This document shows, piece after piece, positions 19,270-33,963 of a stretch of DNA of 38,216 bases. This stretch comes from Gemmatimonadota bacterium (lineage in GTDB: Bacteria > Gemmatimonadota > Gemmatimonadetes > Gemmatimonadales > GWC2-71-9). The notes under the pieces were generated by a model. It was given only the letters and a program-made list of their open reading frames with translations. It had not been told where the DNA came from and searched no databases. The stretch covers positions 1 to 38,216 of the forward strand of contig QHTW01000075.1 of NCBI GenBank assembly GCA_003220955.1, read 5' to 3'. A program made the translations under genes and the position numbers. Each line of letters opens with the position of its first letter. The stretch's first letter is position 1.

Positions 19270-19279
19270 GTTACATTCC

Positions 19280-20717
<1,438 letters not shown>

Positions 20718-25622: not shown

Positions 25623-26876
25623 TCAATCCAGCCGTCGTTCGGCGGAGCGCGCGTGACCCTCGAGCCCTTCGACCCTCCCGAACCACGCGGCGTCTTCGAC
25701 GAGTGGACGCGCGGCCGCGGAGTCGTCGATGCGCAGCCACGTGCGTACTCGCAGAAACGTGTAAACCGATAGGCCGCCCTTCGACCGCGCAGTGCCCGCG
25801 GTCGGAAGCACGTGATTGGGACCGGCACCGTAGTCCCCCAGCACCTCTGCCGATCCGCTGCCGATGAACAGCGCGCCGTAATTTCCAAGTAGCGGCGCGA
25901 CGGCGGCCGAGTCCTGGAGGCAGAGCTCCAGGTGCTCGGGCGCAAGCGCATCGCATGCCGAGATGCCTTCCTCTACACTCGCGACCACCACAACACCGCC
26001 ATTCGCGAGCGCCGCCCGAGCGACCTCGGCGCTGGGCAAGTTGCCAAGCTGGCGAGCGAGCTCCTTGTCGACGCAATCGGGCTGTGCAGGATCGAGCGTG
26101 ACGAGCACGGGCAGCGCGTCGGGGTCGTGCTCCGCCTGCGCGAGCAGATCAGCCGCAATCACTGCAGGAGAGGCGGTGGAGTCGGCGAAAACAACCAGCT
26201 CCGACGGGCCCGCGAGCATATCGATTGCAACGCGCCCCGCGACGAGCTGTTTCGCCGCCGTGACGTAGCGATTTCCGGGTCCCGCAATCACGTCACAAGG
26301 AGGAACCGGGCCCGCGCCGAACGCGAGCGCCGCAATTGCCTGCGCGCCGCCCGCCGCGAGGAGACCGTCGGCGCCGGCGATGGCCGCGGCGGCGAGCGTC
26401 ATCGGTCCCGGCTTGGGGCTCGTGACCCAGATCTCCTTCACGCCCGCCGCCCGCGCCGTCACCGCCGTCATCAGCACCGACGAGGGCAGTGGATAGCGCC
26501 CGCCGGGCGCGTAACAGCCAGCGCGCTCCAGCGGTGCGATCCAATGACCCGCCGCTCCACCAGGCACCGTGACGGTCACCGCATTCAACGCGCGCTTCTG
26601 CGCCTCGGCGAATGTCAGGATTCGCGCAGCGACGCGCTCGAGTCGCGTGCGGTCGCCGGCGGCCAAGCCATCGAGCGCCCGCGCAAGCTCGGCTCGATCC
26701 AAAAACAACGGTCCTCCGGCGGGCACGTCGCCGTGCCGCTCGGCGTGCTCCCGTAGCGCGCTCTCGCCGCGCGCGCGCACTGCGTCGACGATCGGCGCGG
26801 CGACCGCCAAGGCCTCGGCCGGCACACCGGCCGTGCGACGACGCACGAGTTCGGCAACGGAACGACGGTTCAGCAC
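25623..26876 (-). CDS. hisD: Histidinol dehydrogenase
   Basis: 417 aa; ...AGPSE...DLLAQAEHD...GDYGAGPNHVLPT... motifs. GTG start overlaps the upstream gene by 7 nt. Confidence 0.95.
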   Translation of the reverse strand: MLNRRSVAELVRRRTAGVPAEALAVAAPIVDAVRARGESALREHAERHGDVPAGGPLFLDRAELARALDGLAAGDRTRLERVAARILTFAEAQKRALNAVTVTVPGGAAGHWIAPLERAGCYAPGGRYPLPSSVLMTAVTARAAGVKEIWVTSPKPGPMTLAAAAIAGADGLLAAGGAQAIAALAFGAGPVPPCDVIAGPGNRYVTAAKQLVAGRVAIDMLAGPSELVVFADSTASPAVIAADLLAQAEHDPDALPVLVTLDPAQPDCVDKELARQLGNLPSAEVARAALANGGVVVVASVEEGISACDALAPEHLELCLQDSAAVAPLLGNYGALFIGSGSAEVLGDYGAGPNHVLPTAGTARSKGGLSVYTFLRVRTWLRIDDSAAARPLVEDAAWFGRVEGLEGHARSAERRLD

Positions 26877-28138
26877 GCGGAGGTCTTTCTGACCATCGGC
26901 CGCCGATTCACGGCCCCGTGACGACGGGCCAACTCCGCACGAACGTCGGCCAGCGTTCCGCCGCCGCGCGCCAACGCGACGAGTGCCATGTACAACACGT
27001 CGGCCGTCTCCCGCACCACATCTCCGGTCGACTCAGCCCGCGCGAGCTCGTCCGCTTCTTCGCGAAGCTTCGCCGCAAGCAGCGCTCGATCGGTCAGCAG
27101 CCGCGTGGTTCCGGAGCCCGTGACGGGCCGGGCCGCCCGGTCCGCGAGCGTCCGTTCGAGATCGAACAGATCGAACTCCGACGGCCAGCACGAGCGGCGA
27201 TTCAGGTGACAGAACCCGGCGCCCACCTGGCGCACGGTGAAACGCAGCGCATCGCGATCGCAGTCGAGGTCCACGCGCACGAGGGTCTGCGCGTTTCCCG
27301 AAGTCGCGCCTTTTTCCCAAATCGCCTGGCGCGAGCGCGACCAGTAGATCCCGCGCCGCTCAGCCACCGCGCGCGCGAGCGACTCCCGCGAACTCCAGAC
27401 GAGACCGAGTGTGCGGCTCGCGTCGTCGCACACCACGGTCGGCCACACGTCGCCTGGCAACGGCTTCGTGAGCGGCGCGGCGACCGCGTCGCCAAGCGAT
27501 AGCGTGCCGGTGTAGAGCGCCATGCCGACCTGGGCATCGGCGCCAATGCGATCGAGCTCGGCCACTTCGCCCGCAGTGGTGATACCACCCGCGGCCGTCA
27601 CGCGGGCGCCTGCCGCGGCGCGCACTACTGACTCCACGGCGGCACCGTCGTAGCCCAGCATTTCCCCCTCGTTCTCCACCTGAGTGAAGAGGAACCCACC
27701 GACAACGGGCGCAAGCTCGCCGACGCGCTCGAGCACCGGGACACCGGTCGTCCGGCGCCAACCGTCCACTACGATCTCGCCGCGTTTGGCATCCACGGCT
27801 GCGACAACGCGCTCCCGCGGCAAGGCGCCGCAGAACTCCGGCGTCGCTGCTGTGCCGATCACGATCTGGACGGCGCCGTCGTCGAGCCAGCGGCGCGCGC
27901 TGTCGAGATCGCGGATGCCTCCGCCCACGCGACACGGCGCGCGGCGGACGAGATCCCGGATCACGTCGGCGTTCGAGCCCCGGCCAAGTGCGGCGTCCAA
28001 ATCGACGACGGCCACCTCACCCGCGATTGCGAACTCCTCCAACCGCTCGACGGGATCGCCGCCGTCGAGGACGAATTCCTTGCCGCGCCGCAACTGCACC
28101 GCGCGTCCGCCCATGATGTCGATGCTCGGTACGATCAT
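26870..28138 (-). CDS. hisA-hisIE: Fusion protein HisA-like ProFAR isomerase + PR-AMP cyclohydrolase (HisI) + PR-ATP pyrophosphatase (HisE)
   Basis: 422 aa from [16 protein letters not shown].
- aa 1-~222: HisA/His6-type TIM barrel.
- aa ~228-322: [20 protein letters not shown]...LDCDRDAL...CHLNRRSCW (HisI).
- aa ~325-410: GSGTTRLL...KLREEADEL...[11 protein letters not shown] (HisE).
Track ORF trimmed. ATGA overlap with hisHF. Confidence 0.85.
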
Positions 28139-29517
28139 CGCCGCACCCGAATTCCCCGGACGGCGAGGTCCGCTTTGATGCCGTCCACCGTCTCGTCGCG
28201 GTCGTGAAAGACCGATGCCGCGAGCACCGCGTCCACGCCGGCTGCAAAGGCCGCGGCGACGTGTTCCCGCGTTCCAACGCCGCCCGAGGCGATGACGGGG
28301 ACCCGAACCGCTTCCAACGCAGCGCGCAGCAGCCGGATGTCGTGTCCCGCCCGCGTTCCATCGCGATCCCAGCTCGTAAGCAGGATCTCGCCCGCGCCCA
28401 GATGCTCGCCCTCGCGAGCCCACATCACCGCGTCGGGTCGGGCGACCTCGCGCCCGCCGATGACCAGCACCTCCCAGCAATCCGCGGCGCAGCGCGCATC
28501 GATCGCGAGGACGACGCACTGGCGGCCGAACGCGTCGGCGAGCTCGGTCAAGAGCTCAGGGCGGCGCACCGCAGCCGTGTTGACGCTCACTTTGTCTGCG
28601 CCGGCGGAAAGGAGACAACGCGCGTCATCCACGCTGCGGACGCCTCCGCCCACAGTCAGCGGAATGCGGAGCGCCGCCCGCACGCGCCGCACCGTCTCGA
28701 CCTGCGTGCCACGGCCGCTGGCGGACGCCGCGACGTCGAGGATTACGATCTCGTCGGCACCTTGGGCTTCATACCGCGCCGCCTGCTCGGCGGGGTCGCC
28801 GGCGTCGCGCAGGTCCTGGAAGCGGATGCCTTTCACCACGCGGCCATCCTTCACATCGAGGCACGGGATGATACGACGCCGCAGGCCCGACGACCCGTTC
28901 GCTGCCGGCAAGGGTCGCGCCGTTCGACCCGTAAGCCAGCGCTCGAGCAGATCCGCGCCATACGCACCCGATAGCTCGGGGTGAAACTGGCAAGCGAGCG
29001 TATGCCCGCGTTCAAGCGCGGCGAGGAATGGCACGCCGTGCGTGGTCCAGGCGGTGGTCCATCCCGGCGGACTTTCACGCAGCGCGTAGGAGTTCGCGAA
29101 CGCCGCGACCCCGGGAGTCAGCAAACGCGCTTCTGGTTCGGGCGTCACGCTGTTCCAGCCGAGATGCGGGATCCGCACATGGGGTGGCAACCGGCGACAG
29201 GTTCCCGCCACAACGCCGAGTCCCGCCACCCCGGGCGCCTCCTCACTCGCCTCGCATAACATCTGCATGCCGAGACAAATGCCGAGGATCGGTGTGCCGC
29301 GTGATCCGTGATCGCGAATGGCGGTTTCAAGACCGCGAGATCGGAGCGCCGCCATGCCAGTGCCAAACGCGCCGACACCAGGCAAAACGATGCGTGCCGC
29401 GTCGCGCACGGTTGCAGGATCGGCGGAGATGATCACGCCAGCGTTGAGGCGTCGAAAGGCGCCGGCAATCGACGCGAGATTGGCGACGCCCGAATCCACG
29501 ATCACGACGTCACTCAT
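28135..29517 (-). CDS. hisHF: Single-chain imidazole glycerol phosphate synthase (HisH glutaminase fused to HisF cyclase)
   Basis: 460 aa from [10 protein letters not shown]. HisH motifs are GICLGMQ and QFHPE. A ~15-aa linker [15 protein letters not shown] follows, then His[17 protein letters not shown]...ASGGVG. No stop between the domains. Confidence 0.9.
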
Positions 29518-30115
29518 GACTGGCAGCTCCGAGCGTGCCTTTGGTTGACGGCACGTCTTCGAATCCCGACACCCCCACCGCCTGACGCAGCGCCAGAGCG
29601 GTGGCCTTGAACGCCGCTTCGGCACGATGATGATCGTTTTCGCCCTTTAGTACATCGACATGCAGCGTCATGCGCCCCGCCGTCGCCAGCGAACGCAGGA
29701 AATGCCCGACATTCTCACACGCGAGGCCACCGATTGCCTGGCGTTGCAGGCTGAGCGCGACGTCTGAAAACGGCCGGCCGGAAAGATCGACGACCCCCCG
29801 TGCTAACGCCTCATCGAGCGGGGCGAGCGCCCAGCCGAAACGGTTGACCCCGCGCCGCTCCCCCAGGGCGCGGTCGAGTGCCTCTCCCACAGCGAGCGCA
29901 CAATCCTCGGCGGTGTGGTGATCGTCGACCTGCAGGTCCCCCTCGCACGTGAGCTTCAGGTCAAACCGCGCGTGGCGACCCAGCGTGTCGAGGAGATGAT
30001 CGAGGAAACCGATCCCCGTCTTTATCGTCGTCTTCCCGGTGCCATCGACATCGAGCGAGAGGTGAATCGATGTCTCGCGGGTGGTGCGCGTGACCGTGCC
30101 AGTGCGGGGATTCAT
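29510..30115 (-). CDS. hisB: Imidazoleglycerol-phosphate dehydratase (monofunctional)
   Basis: 201 aa. TRETSI...GIGFLDHLL...[10 protein letters not shown]...[14 protein letters not shown]. Confidence 0.95.
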
Positions 30116-31851
30116 GACAGCAACTCCTCCAGATCGGCCAGTTGATCGAGCACGCGAGCGGCGCCCGCGTCGGCGAGAGCAGCGGCGGTTGCAGCGAGGT
30201 CATCGCCGGGCGCCACGACGCCGAGCGGCAGCACGTCGGCGCCGGCGGCGGCCCGGATGTCATCGGGGGCATTGCCCACCATCCACGCCCGTCGAGCTCG
30301 CAGGCGCGTGAGTGCGAGGCGAACCGGCGCGGGGTCCGGTTTGCGCGCGGCGTCTTCCATGCAGACGACAGCGCGGAACAGGTCCGCGACACCCTCGCGC
30401 TCGAGGAACCAGCGCGCCTCCTCGCGCGGCCGCCCCGTGACGACGGCGAGCGGCAGCCGCTTCGCGAGTCGTTCGAGCAGCGCGCGTGGCACGATCAGGC
30501 GCTCGCGTTCGCGCAACCCGGGCGATCCGGCCGCGCCGAGGTACAGCGCCTGGAAGCGTGTGGTGACGCTCGCGAGCTCGGCCTGGACGCCGCGCGCCGC
30601 GATCAGGCGCTGCGTCACGATCCAATCGTTCGCCGCGTCGCCCGCGCGCAACGCATCCTCGATGTCTTCCATTGTTACGTTCACGCCGTAGGTCTCGGCG
30701 GTTGCAATCATGGCCGCGCGCTGCGACTCGCGCACGTCGGCGAGCACGCCGTCGAGATCGAAGACGAGCGCCTCAGGCGCGAGCACCGTGTCGAGGGCGC
30801 TCGTGAGGCGCTCGAAGGCGGTCGGTTCACCGGGCAGCGTGATACGCAGCGCCGTGACGATGCCGGGCCGGTCGGGAAACTCGCGGACCAGCACTCGGAG
30901 CGCGGCGAGGCCGGCGGCACAGAACCTCGCGCGTCGGCCGCACTCGACGAAGACGAAGTTTGCCTGCGACGCGCGAGGAGAGAGTCCGAGCGACGCCAGC
31001 TGCCGGGTGAGTGCCGCGCGCTCCTCACGCACCCGCGCTACGTGCGCCGCGAGCGGCCCCGCACCGCGCTCGAGCTGTCGCATCGCCAGCGCCAGCGATG
31101 GGGCGGCGACGGGATAAGGGCCGCCCGCCGCGCGCAGCACGGCGACGACGTCCGCATTGCCAACCGCGTAGCCGACCCGGCACCCCGCGAGCCCCCACGC
31201 CTTCGAGAGCGTGCGGAGCACGAGGACGTTGGGGATGTCGAGCACGGCAGCGGTGAGATCGTAATTCGCATACTCGACGTAGGCATGATCGAGCAGGACG
31301 AGAGCGCCGGGCGCCGCGGCGGCGAGCCGGCGCACGTCCGCCAGCGTGGCCACGCCACCCGTCGGATTGTTGGGCGACACGATCGCGACGACCGCGGTGC
31401 GGGCGTCGATGCGCTCCGAAAACGCGCCGGTGGGAAACGCGTCACTCGGCCACGGCACGCGCACCAGTTCGCCCCCGGCGAGCGCCGCGTAGCGATCGAG
31501 CATTTCGAAACTCGGGTCGGGAAGCAGCAGGGTGCGGCCGGGCGTGAGGAATGCGCGGCAGGCACGATCGATCGCTTCATCCGCTCCGGCGGTGACGATC
31601 ACGCGCTCGGGCGCGACGCTCCAGTGCGCGGCGAGGCGGCCAGTCAGCTCGGCAACGTCGGGGTAACGACGAAGCACCTCTGGATCGGCCTGCGCCAACT
31701 CGGCCAGCACGGCCGGCGACGGCAGGAGGCCCTCGTTCCGGTCCAGTCGCAGCATGCCGGCGCCGCTGCGGACCGGCTGGTCATACGCAGACGCGGGATT
31801 GATCCACGAACGTGGCCCGCTCCTTTCCCCGGTCCTCGTCGCGGTCGTCAT
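30112..31851 (-). CDS. hisC: Histidinol-phosphate aminotransferase fused to a C-terminal HAD-superfamily phosphatase domain
   Basis: aa 1-~355 is a class II aminotransferase (SPNNPTG, PLP-Lys in RTLSKAWGLAG). aa ~360-579 is a HAD fold with FDLDGVL (motif I), VVTG (II), RKPDP (III) and VGNAPDD (IV-like). Confidence 0.9.
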   Translation of the reverse strand: MTTATRTGERSGPRSWINPASAYDQPVRSGAGMLRLDRNEGLLPSPAVLAELAQADPEVLRRYPDVAELTGRLAAHWSVAPERVIVTAGADEAIDRACRAFLTPGRTLLLPDPSFEMLDRYAALAGGELVRVPWPSDAFPTGAFSERIDARTAVVAIVSPNNPTGGVATLADVRRLAAAAPGALVLLDHAYVEYANYDLTAAVLDIPNVLVLRTLSKAWGLAGCRVGYAVGNADVVAVLRAAGGPYPVAAPSLALAMRQLERGAGPLAAHVARVREERAALTRQLASLGLSPRASQANFVFVECGRRARFCAAGLAALRVLVREFPDRPGIVTALRITLPGEPTAFERLTSALDTVLAPEALVFDLDGVLADVRESQRAAMIATAETYGVNVTMEDIEDALRAGDAANDWIVTQRLIAARGVQAELASVTTRFQALYLGAAGSPGLRERERLIVPRALLERLAKRLPLAVVTGRPREEARWFLEREGVADLFRAVVCMEDAARKPDPAPVRLALTRLRARRAWMVGNAPDDIRAAAGADVLPLGVVAPGDDLAATAAALADAGAARVLDQLADLEELLS

Positions 31852-32726
31852 GGCACGATCTGCGACAGAGCGGAGACGACGACGTCAGTGCCGCCGGCCG
31901 CTTTCACCGCGGGAATCACCTGTGGCAAGAGCTCACGCGGCACGGCGGCCTTTACTGCGTATCCGGTGTCGCCAAACAGTCGGGATACTGTCGCTTGGCG
32001 CATGGACGGCAGCACGGCCACCACGGCGTCGAGACACGCCCCCGACGCGTTCACTTCGAGCATGACGCGCCGACGAGCCTCGAGCACGGAGTTGATCAGC
32101 AACACTAGATCGTCGATGTAGCGGCGGCGTGTCGGATCATCGAGTGCCGCGCGGTGCGCATACAGCCGCGTGGATGAGGGCATCAACACGTCGACAATCG
32201 CGAGTCCGTTAGCGTCGAGGGTCGCACCGGTGGCGGTGTTGTCGACGATCACGTCGGCGTCTTCGGGAGGAAAGACTTCTGTCGCGCCGTAAGAGCGGAC
32301 GAACTCGGCGCACACCTTCTTTGCGTCGATCCAGCGGCGCGCCATCCGCTCGTATTCCGACGCGACGACGAGACGCCGCGCGGGCAGTCGCCCGCCTTCG
32401 AGCAGCGCGACGGGAGCAGCAGCCACGAGTTGCACGGGGTCGAGGCCCGTGTCGAGCAGCTCGACGACGTCGGCTTCCAGCTCCGCCACCCAGTCGGCGC
32501 CGGCGAAGCCCACATCGCGGCTGCCGAGCGCAAGCATTTCGACGATGTTCTGGGGTTTCAGGAGCTTCGCCTCGGCCCCGGGCAGTCCCACGTCGGGCCG
32601 ATAGCCCCGGGCGCTGGGACGCACGCGGATGCCGGCATCGGCGAGAAGGGTCAGCACGCCCTGCTCCATCCGGCCCTTGGGCAGGCCGAGGCGAAACGGG
32701 ACGGCGCGGCGGACGATTGTGGACAT
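31848..32726 (-). CDS. hisG: ATP phosphoribosyltransferase, long form with C-terminal regulatory domain
   Basis: 292 aa. LGLPKGRM..., DVGFAGADW, VDNTATGATL. GGAG sits 7 nt upstream of the ATG. Confidence 0.9.
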   Translation of the reverse strand: MSTIVRRAVPFRLGLPKGRMEQGVLTLLADAGIRVRPSARGYRPDVGLPGAEAKLLKPQNIVEMLALGSRDVGFAGADWVAELEADVVELLDTGLDPVQLVAAAPVALLEGGRLPARRLVVASEYERMARRWIDAKKVCAEFVRSYGATEVFPPEDADVIVDNTATGATLDANGLAIVDVLMPSSTRLYAHRAALDDPTRRRYIDDLVLLINSVLEARRRVMLEVNASGACLDAVVAVLPSMRQATVSRLFGDTGYAVKAAVPRELLPQVIPAVKAAGGTDVVVSALSQIVP

Positions 32727-32780
32727 CGATCGGCTCCATGTTGGCCGAACCGGAGTCCCCCAGAGTCCCGCGACGCCGCC

Positions 32781-32822
32781 CCAAAAAGCACGACGCCGGC
32801 CCTGGGGGGACCGGCGTCGGTG
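32781..32822 (-). terminator. Intrinsic terminator in the hisG leader (candidate attenuator)
   Basis: Minus strand CGACGCCGG-UCCCCCCAGGG-CCGGCGUCG followed by UGCUUUUUGGGG. About 55 nt upstream of the hisG ATG. No upstream co-oriented gene to terminate. Confidence 0.6.
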
Positions 32823-32848
32823 ATGATCAAGACTCTACACGCCTCCGG

Positions 32849-32905
32849 CTATCCCCCGTGTTCCGAGTGACCGTGGTGATGCCGGTGCGAAGAAGTACGC
32901 TTCAT
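32849..32905 (-). CDS. Candidate his operon leader peptide MKRTSSHRHHHGHSEHGG
   Basis: 18 codons plus TAG, read by hand (not in the ORF track). 6 His codons in the last 12 positions. Sits between a promoter-like element and the terminator. Confidence 0.55.
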   Translation of the reverse strand: MKRTSSHRHHHGHSEHGG

Positions 32906-32912
32906 TGACCGT

Positions 32913-32941
32913 GATATAGCGCAGTGGCGAAACTGTGTCAA
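32913..32941 (-). promoter_or_regulatory. Candidate sigma-70-type promoter of the his leader (TTGACA-17 nt-TATATC)
   Basis: Minus strand caTTGACAcagtttcgccactgcgcTATATCacggtcaATG. The -10 ends 7 nt before the leader ATG. Overlaps the start of the divergent M28 gene. Confidence 0.4.
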
Positions 32942-33963
32942 TGCGCATCGGCCTCATACCTCGGACGCGCTGGGGGCTGATCCGGATGATCGCGCTCGCC
33001 GGGATTCTGCCACTCCTCTTCCTCATCATCTGGCTGTTCACCGTCCGCATGCCGGGCCCGGCATTCTCGGGGCCGCTGCCGCCGCTCACGCCCAATCAGA
33101 TGCTCATCCGCGCGGGGCTGGAACGCCACGTCCGAGTGCTCGCGCACGATATCGGCGTGCGCAGCGATGCGACGTATTCCAACGTCCTCCGGACATCAGC
33201 TTACATCGAACGCCGCCTGCAGGATCTCGGGTATACAGTCGACACGCAGGAGTTCTTCGCCCTGGGTCGCTCCTATCGCAATATAGAAGCGACGCTGCCC
33301 GGGGCGCCCGGGCATGCGCATGAAGTCGTCGTGCTCGGTGCCCACTACGACACCGCCGAAGAAGCGCCTGGCGCCGACGACAACGCGAGCGGCGTGGCGG
33401 GCGTGCTCGAGCTGGCTCGAGTGTTCGCCCACGAGCGCCTGGCTCGCACTGTGCGATTTGTCTTTTTTTCAAATGAGGAGCCGCCGTCGTTCCCGACGGC
33501 CGACATGGGGAGCCGGCATTACGCCACCGCTGCGCGGGCGCGCAACGACCAGATCGTCGCGATGCTGTCGATCGAGTCGATTGGCTACTACGACACTGAG
33601 AAGGGCAGCCAGCGATATCCCTTCCCGCTCAACTACGCGTACCCGGATGTCGGCGACTTTATCGGATTCGTGTCGAATCTCAAGTCGCGCGCGCTGCTGC
33701 ATCGCGCGATCGCGGCGTTTCGCGCGCACGCTACTCTGCCGACGCAGGGCGCAGCGGCGCCCGCATGGGTGCCGGGCGTCTGGTGGTCGGATCATTGGTC
33801 GTTCTGGCGGGAAGGCTATCGGGCGATCATGATCACCGATACCGCGCCGTATCGGAATCCGTTCTACCACACTCCGCAGGACACGCCCGACAAGCTCGAC
33901 TACGACCGCATGGCGCGGGTGGTGCACGGATTGTCGTACGTCGTGCGCGCGCTGGCAAATTGA
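32935..33963 (+). CDS. M28 family zinc aminopeptidase, membrane-anchored
   Basis: VVLGAHYDT...GADDNASGVAGVLELAR...FFSNEEP...GSRHY. GTG at 32935 or ATG at 32941. Confidence 0.85.
   Translation: MSMRIGLIPRTRWGLIRMIALAGILPLLFLIIWLFTVRMPGPAFSGPLPPLTPNQMLIRAGLERHVRVLAHDIGVRSDATYSNVLRTSAYIERRLQDLGYTVDTQEFFALGRSYRNIEATLPGAPGHAHEVVVLGAHYDTAEEAPGADDNASGVAGVLELARVFAHERLARTVRFVFFSNEEPPSFPTADMGSRHYATAARARNDQIVAMLSIESIGYYDTEKGSQRYPFPLNYAYPDVGDFIGFVSNLKSRALLHRAIAAFRAHATLPTQGAAAPAWVPGVWWSDHWSFWREGYRAIMITDTAPYRNPFYHTPQDTPDKLDYDRMARVVHGLSYVVRALAN

Follow-up and report, generated by a model that had tools for sequence, protein, structure and literature searches.

A predicted ribosome-mediated histidine attenuator upstream of the his operon of a Gemmatimonadota bacterium and its counterparts in other phyla

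The stretch of DNA analysed, called the window below, comprises positions 1 to 38,216 (38,216 nucleotides, nt; forward strand) of contig QHTW01000075.1 from a Gemmatimonadota bacterium of the Gemmatimonadales (GenBank assembly GCA_003220955.1). A complete his operon with overlapping or abutting genes is located on the minus strand, hisG being the first gene. Between hisG and a divergent M28 peptidase gene, the sole upstream neighbour, a short open reading frame (ORF) rich in His codons and an intrinsic terminator were found, which are described here as parts of a candidate ribosome-mediated attenuator. The features of the locus are as follows.

32936..32941, minus strand: -35 hexamer TTGACA of the leader promoter, read directly.
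32913..32918, minus strand: -10-like hexamer TATATC, 17 nt 3' of the -35 hexamer and 7 nt 5' of the leader ATG.
32849..32905, minus strand: leader peptide ORF MKRTSSHRHHHGHSEHGG with UAG stop codon (ATG at 32905, UAG at 32851-32849), read directly.
32858..32887, minus strand: regulatory His codons, namely codons 7, 9, 10, 11, 13 and 16 of the leader, with a conserved CGG Arg codon inside the run.
32865..32885, minus strand: region 1, the His-codon segment (CCGGC ... UC.CUC), predicted to pair with region 2 (anti-antiterminator helix 1:2).
32834..32857, minus strand: region 2, the antiterminator 5' arm GGGGGAUAGCCGGAGGCGUGUAGA, which holds the leader stop codon; from constrained folds.
32804..32823, minus strand: region 3, the antiterminator 3' arm, consisting of the terminator 5' arm, the loop CCCCC and 4 nt upstream.
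32791..32819, minus strand: intrinsic terminator hairpin CGACGCCGGUCC-CCCCA-GGGCCGGCGUCG (regions 3:4), -24.4 kcal/mol.
32782..32790, minus strand: U-rich tail UGCUUUUUG, read directly and found by consensus scan.
32734..32737, minus strand: Shine-Dalgarno (SD) sequence GGAG of hisG, 7 nt before the ATG at 32726, read directly.
25623..32726, minus strand: operon hisG, hisC::HAD phosphatase, hisB, hisH::hisF, hisA::hisIE, hisD, from the ORF list and a Pfam scan.

The leader ORF consists of 18 codons, six of which are His codons (five CAC, one CAU). At least six His codons per 12 consecutive codons were encountered at just two places in the 38-kb window in any frame, and a His run of that density arose in 2 of 200 block shuffles of the window. 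The second run is located at about 30060-30130 on the minus strand, in the +2 frame, where it spans the stop of hisC::HAD and the start of hisB. It reads CAC TGG CAC GGT CAC GCG CAC CAC CCG (HWHGHAHHP) and is probably a by-product of the Thr codons (ACN) of hisB.

In the terminator hairpin identified by the consensus scan, 10 of the 12 pairs are G-C and the loop measures 5 nt; TGCTTTTTGG follows. The hairpin starts 29 nt past the leader stop, and the U-run ends at 32783, 56 nt upstream of the hisG ATG. An earlier, sequence-only description of the locus (the initial annotation) had given the same leader ORF with its six His codons, a GC hairpin about 30 nt downstream with a U-run about 55 nt before hisG, and the promoter TTGACA-17-TATATC ending 7 nt before the leader ATG; all of these were confirmed on direct reading. 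The same holds for its statement that no co-oriented upstream gene needs the terminator, since the M28 gene is divergent. A dispersed repeat or mobile terminator was considered and rejected: the pattern CGCCGG-N(4-14)-CCGGCG was present in the window only here and once at 139, and the palindromic stem in the loci of relatives sits mostly at the leader.

No SD sequence precedes the leader ATG in the window, in contrast to the GGAG of hisG. Upstream regions of 58 distinct leaders were compared. In 53 of them, a hexamer agreeing with TTGACA at 5 or more of its 6 positions began 34-39 nt ahead of the A in the leader ATG, with a mode of 36, which is the distance in the window. The end of the best -10 candidate lay 6-11 nt upstream of the ATG (modes 7 and 9), position -1 was C in 69% of the leaders, and an SD-like 4-mer occurred in only 4/58. 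Because the -35 spacing is fixed in 53/58 regions and an SD sequence is almost never present, the leaderless layout is regarded as conserved. As judged from this layout, the leader transcripts very probably start at the AUG or carry a 5' untranslated region (UTR) of at most about 4 nt, in agreement with the leaderless or nearly leaderless arrangement proposed initially.

A poor hexamer speaks against this placement of the start: TATATC matches the -10 consensus at only 4/6 positions and lacks the terminal T. The consensus promoter scan of the window did not list TTGACA-17-TATATC, because the scan demands T at the last -10 position. The same attenuator might therefore be carried by an mRNA which starts further upstream and is translated in a non-SD, standby or otherwise leadered manner, and the predicted distances of 6-11 nt between -10 and ATG would already leave some members with a 5' UTR of 1-4 nt. 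We regard this alternative as unlikely, with an appreciable residual probability. It has to be set against the fixed position of TTGACA, which extends over at least eight phylum-level lineages, and against the frequent C at -1, which implies a pyrimidine-purine start site. SD-like sequences are rare before the leader, whereas hisG has one, and merely 30-36 base pairs separate the leader ATG from the start of the divergent M28 gene in the window.

These few base pairs form part of a mirror-symmetric pair of divergent promoters on both strands (window 32905-32943). The plus strand reads TTGACC (32905-32910), 18 nt, GAAACT, 6 nt, and the ATG at 32941 of the M28 peptidase gene. The start-codon A of each gene complements the first T of the opposite -35 box (CATTGAC...GTCAATG), and the spacing is alike in six related loci (L001, L002, L003, L006, L007 and L026). 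Because of the mirror-symmetric spacing, the M28 mRNA also looks leaderless in sequence. The two promoters overlap fully and may be mutually exclusive.

The distribution of the element was analysed in 80 loci from a hisG-based scan, with one genome per GTDB species. The nearest loci were metagenome-assembled genomes of Gemmatimonadales with a HisG identity of 76-93%. A simple ORF scan detected a His-rich short ORF 5' of hisG in about 60 of the 80 loci, including nearly all Gemmatimonadales. A covariance model, R1, was built from 40 leader sequences and matched the window once (32784-32905, 77.5 bits, E 7.7e-14). R1 matches were obtained in 65 loci plus one marginal case, with a single site each, always upstream of hisG; the conservation in relatives that the initial annotation had proposed to look for was found in 65-66 of the 80 hisG loci. 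Five held-out loci (L006, L008, L058, L077 and L078) were matched with E-values from 1.8e-07 to 4.8e-15. Loci missed by the ORF/terminator scan were recovered by R1 (L008, L006, L078, L058, L077 and L060); L006 and L078 have weak U-runs, and L058 had received no terminator call.

Carriers belong to Gemmatimonadota, Acidobacteriota, Planctomycetota, Myxococcota, Eisenbacteria, Sumerlaeota, Rhodothermia and Spirochaetota, and the labels of carrier loci include Longimicrobiales, Phycisphaerae/Planctomycetota, Planctomycetales and Spirochaetaceae. Part of the carrier loci are located on complete chromosomes or megabase contigs (among them loci labelled Longimicrobiales, Myxococcota and Planctomycetales). 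Leaders across the loci comprise 18-29 codons with 4-10 His codons, the first His typically being codon 7. A terminator-like hairpin was present in 60 of 63 leaders from the ORF scan and starts 14-40 nt (mostly 21-40 nt) past the leader stop, and the terminator stem (G)ACGCCGGCC / GGCCGGCGU(C) is conserved across phyla. In one close relative (L008, positions 1968-2078, 89% HisG identity) promoter, region 2 and terminator are kept, and the leader has three His codons only (MSTPFHRHGHSVLGG). For this reason the L008 leader may be a weakened or decaying sensor.

Alternative helices were examined by ribosome-mask folding of the transcript up to the terminator loop, with the A-site codon plus 13 nt barred from pairing. 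With the ribosome on a central His codon, the antiterminator reached a median of -32.8 kcal/mol in 60 loci and sequestered 74% of the nt of the terminator 5' arm. When the A site held the stop codon, the median was -4.8 kcal/mol, and 25% of these nt were sequestered. The corresponding values for the window were -22.3 kcal/mol with 9/12 terminator-arm nt sequestered on His stalling, and -3.9 kcal/mol with 0/12 at the stop codon, where region 2 is covered. In the helix formed on His stalling, region 2, a G-rich stretch around the place where the ORF ends, is paired with region 3, which comprises the terminator 5' arm and the loop.

In ribosome-free folds, region 1 paired with region 2 in many loci, and the RNAalifold consensus of 27 Gemmatimonadales sequences consisted of helix 1:2 and the terminator. 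The core of helix 1:2 is CCGGC of CAC-CGG-CAU paired with GCCGG, one pair being CG in 15 sequences and UA in 12. This pairing accounts for the Arg codon CGG kept inside the His run. The resemblance between the His-codon stretch and the terminator 5' arm region, which had been pointed out before, finds its counterpart in this helix, in which the His segment pairs with the antiterminator 5' arm. Many members outside the Gemmatimonadales have a UGA stop codon embedded in a GGUGAUGG-type stretch, which is complementary to the His codons, and across the loci the leader stop is always located inside or just past region 2. The helices of the window are nearly isoenergetic (1:2 -22.5, 2:3 -23.3 and 3:4 -24.4 kcal/mol).

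Co-variation was assessed within and between lineages. Within the Gemmatimonadales, 85% of the cells of the antiterminator were paired, compared to 36-56% in slid controls, and no pair was changed on both sides. The antiterminator signal within this order is conservation, not co-variation. Across phyla, co-variation was seen between nucleotides of the terminator loop, which have no role in the terminator itself, and the 5' flank of region 2 (CCCC/GGGG, CUCG/CGAG, CCGC/GCGG, CCUC/GAGG). In a mini-alignment of 28 sequences, which was anchored by structure prediction and for that reason favours the inner four pairs, 81% of the cells of the outer antiterminator helix were paired and 7 of 10 pairs were changed on both sides. 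Its score was reached by 0/500 shuffles, and slid controls were far lower. The compensatory stem changes that the initial annotation had proposed to look for were obtained between phyla and not for the antiterminator inside the order. RNAalifold returned zero pairs on a cross-phylum alignment of antiterminator-state sequences, because the MAFFT alignment was too gappy.

An alignment-free test was performed with 52 non-redundant loci. Cognate duplexes of regions 2 and 3 had -29.8 kcal/mol versus -25.0 kcal/mol for non-cognate ones, and cognate duplexes of regions 1 and 2 had -25.0 versus -20.9 kcal/mol (permutation p<=1e-4 in both cases); these differences could be inflated by the G+C content of the lineages.

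A coding role of the leader is suggested by the distribution of CAY triplets in 58 distinct leaders, with 372 triplets in the ATG frame and 13 and 37 in the other frames; the count is partly circular, because the ORFs had been picked for in-frame His codons. Independently of the His count, the promoter distance fixes the position of the leader ATG. CAC and CAU are freely interchanged among leaders, and the share of CAU was 44% in leaders and 37% in window genes, which is no meaningful difference. An RNA-only or protein-bound switch in the 5' UTR, responding to tRNA-His, histidine or a regulator, would leave the ORF untranslated and reduce the CAY triplets to pairing partners. Such a switch would be in line with the high sequence conservation of the helices and with the RNA constraint on part of the His run, where CCGGC pairs with GCCGG. 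We consider it very improbable in view of the frame preference, the fixed promoter distance of the ATG, the free interchange of CAC and CAU and the invariable placement of the stop in or just past region 2. Moreover, neither a T-box nor another Rfam family was matched in the window region at E<=10 or in ten other loci at E<=0.1.

On the 3' side of the His run, a conserved GGGGGG(C)AGCCGGAGGCG is read as GGQPEA or GGSRRR, depending on the locus (more fully, GGQPEAHTR and GGSRRRT). Because the conserved nucleotides are read in different frames, the constraint on this part is attributed to the RNA and not to the peptide. This bears on the idea that the ORF encodes a functional micropeptide rich in His, such as a metal binder, and that the hairpin merely ends a short transcript. 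Conservation of the His-rich peptide, which would bind metals, is in line with this idea, and trans-acting leader peptides such as peTrpL of Sinorhizobium are known (PMC7298713). With a length that varies from 18 to 29 residues, no conservation beyond the His run and differing frames, and with an ORF that is always directly upstream of hisG, a micropeptide appears highly improbable, and it would leave the antiterminator overlapping the terminator unexplained.

Several further observations weigh against an attenuator, in addition to the poor -10 hexamer and to the anchoring and G+C effects mentioned with the co-variation tests. The whole-leader fold of the window had a z-score of only -1.29, and its minimum free energy structure paired the leader with downstream sequence. 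Of the dinucleotide shuffles of region 2, 15% equalled the antiterminator energy of the window, and the 1:2 duplex was equalled in 16% of dinucleotide shuffles; in DNA of 65% G+C, G-rich and C-rich segments pair easily. The absence of two-sided changes in the antiterminator of the Gemmatimonadales belongs here as well. Finally, the window falls into a subgroup (12 of the 27 sequences of alignment A1) with a deletion of about 24 nt (columns 80-101) relative to other Gemmatimonadales, by which the inner part of the antiterminator is removed. The antiterminator of this subgroup is weaker because of the loss. The deletion co-occurs in A1 with a CAG-to-UAG change, which moves the stop upstream and leaves a leader of 18 instead of about 26 codons.

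Since folds of the window alone were no better than shuffles, the case for attenuation rests on the comparison with relatives. The initial annotation had suggested folding to look for mutually exclusive antiterminator and terminator structures; these were obtained in the constrained folds, and those of the window were no better than its own dinucleotide shuffles. Unremarkable single-sequence folding statistics in 65% G+C DNA would also be expected of a chance ORF beside an unconditional terminator or an RNA-stabilising hairpin, without any regulation. This explanation is the least credible of those considered. The element is kept in 65-66 loci of several phyla, His runs of such density were rare in shuffles, and an unconditional terminator would silence a complete biosynthetic operon.

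The observations comprise the parts of the attenuator and their conservation, as well as helices that exclude one another and co-vary. From these and from the folding models, it is considered highly likely that the complete his operon is under the control of a ribosome-mediated transcription attenuator which senses histidine via ribosome stalling, as had been proposed at the outset; all parts recognisable in sequence are present and conserved in relatives. We infer that transcription starts at, or a few nt from, the A of the leader AUG. A ribosome would load on the 5'-terminal start codon and translate the 18-codon leader with its six His codons. At low charging of His-tRNA it would stall on codons 9-13, so that region 2 (GGGGG-AUA-GCCGG-AGGCGUG) would be free to pair with the terminator 5' arm and loop (CAC-CGACGCCGG-U-CCCCC). 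The terminator would be blocked, and RNA polymerase would proceed into hisG. At high charging the ribosome would reach the UAG and cover region 2. If it had already left, the His-codon segment would capture region 2 in helix 1:2 around CCGGC of CAC-CGG-CAU. In both situations the 12-bp terminator would form, and transcription in vivo would end at the U-run.

Three apparent gene fusions were noted inside the his operon (25623-31851, minus strand). A hisC aminotransferase is joined to a C-terminal HAD phosphatase domain, likely a histidinol-phosphatase (579 aa). GATase and His_biosynth domains (hisH-hisF) share an ORF of 496 aa, and His_biosynth, PRA-CH and PRA-PH domains (hisA-hisIE) share an ORF of 549 aa. 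Some of these may be overlapping separate genes, because the mechanically assigned ORF starts may be too long.

A search of the whole window with Rfam 15 at gathering thresholds returned a TPP riboswitch only and neither RF00514 (His_leader) nor a T-box, so that the models suggested by the initial annotation did not match. The riboswitch (RF00059) is located at 19279-19377 on the plus strand, and scored 66.5 bits (gathering score 54.3). When 32600-33100 was scanned permissively, at E<=10, only noise was obtained, without His_leader or T-box, and a scan of ten homologous loci at E<=0.1 gave no match over the leader.

We lean slightly towards the view that the leaders constitute a single, uncatalogued family of leaderless His-attenuator RNAs, conserved in sequence and found neither in Rfam 15 nor in the searchable literature, with an almost invariant terminator stem (ACGCCGGCC/GGCCGGCGU) and accompanying one long-form hisG clade in at least eight phylum-level lineages. 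If this is true, the family would be of ancient origin, or hisG and its sensor would have been transferred together repeatedly, and outside the proteobacteria the sensing ribosome would normally be loaded by 5'-terminal (70S-type) initiation. Leaderless sensory ORFs would be extended to new phyla and to histidine. The mechanism of attenuation itself is textbook knowledge and not new. About 65 aligned examples can be used for a covariance model. In practical terms, the element flags a short ORF missed by gene callers and accounts for a strong terminator ahead of an essential operon.

The his regulators listed in reviews are attenuators (gamma-proteobacteria and a few Firmicutes), T-boxes (Firmicutes and Actinobacteria) and the HisR repressor, and none was reported for Gemmatimonadota, Planctomycetota, Acidobacteriota or Myxococcota (PMC9413887); the element offers a concrete answer for these four phyla. 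A survey of Actinobacteria detected no RNA element upstream of his operons (PMC1262725). No paper in the searchable literature joins Gemmatimon*, leader peptide and attenuation, and Russian-language or subscription surveys could cover some of the phyla.

The locus exhibits the features by which leader-peptide attenuators are recognised: six His codons in 18 upstream of a full his operon, an intrinsic terminator located past the leader ORF and ahead of the first structural gene, an antiterminator that forms in folds constrained by a stalled ribosome (60 loci) and co-varies across phyla, and a helix 1:2 overlapping the regulatory codons according to RNAalifold (27 sequences) and the cognate duplex test. 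A leaderless sensory ORF is indicated by the missing SD sequence and by a promoter placed for a start at the start codon.

A known counterpart is hisL (RF00514) of E. coli, Salmonella and other gamma-proteobacteria. In both cases a short ORF with clustered His codons precedes hisG, a terminator lies before the first gene, the position of the ribosome selects (here by prediction) between mutually exclusive helices, and the whole his operon is, or here would be, controlled. The leader of E. coli hisL is preceded by an SD sequence and has 16 codons with seven consecutive His codons and a longer series of helices (A:B, C:D and E:F versus B:C and D:E). In the present leader the His run is interrupted (HRHHHGH..H), an SD sequence is missing, and the start codon is expected to lie right at the 5' end. 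No homology to hisL was detectable, as RF00514 gave no match even at E<=10. The helix layout (1:2, 2:3, 3:4), with the stop codon in region 2, is trp-like: as in trpL of E. coli, four segments form three alternative helices, and helix 1:2 captures region 2 if no ribosome is stalled. Unlike the present leader, trpL uses Trp codons, is preceded by an SD sequence and is unrelated in sequence.

His attenuators outside RF00514 have been proposed for the Bacillus cereus group, Peptostreptococcaceae and Erysipelotrichales, in addition to the gamma-proteobacterial ones (PMC9413887), and for bacilli upstream of hisZ and of a hisS paralogue, hisS* (PMC2965389). Like the present family they are independent His-codon peptides with terminator and antiterminator, known from comparative genomics only. 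They differ in their phyla, low G+C content and narrow range, and are not described as leaderless in these two reports.

The initial annotation had called a leaderless variant unusual. The missing SD sequence and the promoter layout agree with a leaderless variant, and its rarity has to be qualified by precedents. In Deinococcus deserti, 14 leaderless leader peptides were predicted, with transcription start sites mapped at the AUG (PMC4007540); the main text of that paper does not mention histidine. In mycobacteria, leaderless short ORFs with poly-Cys stretches were tested by mutation (bioRxiv 10.1101/834739). Reports on Corynebacterium, Streptomyces and Sinorhizobium (trpL) may add further leaderless leader-peptide attenuators. 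The short ORFs of Deinococcus and mycobacteria share with the present leader a sensory ORF at the 5' end of the transcript without an SD sequence (here predicted) and control of downstream genes by ribosomes that stall at the codons specifying the end-product amino acid (here proposed). The mycobacterial Cys elements act on translation through sequestration of the ribosome-binding site and not on termination. The present family differs from these leaderless short ORFs in being specific for His, in its intrinsic terminator, and in a sequence conserved across several phyla.

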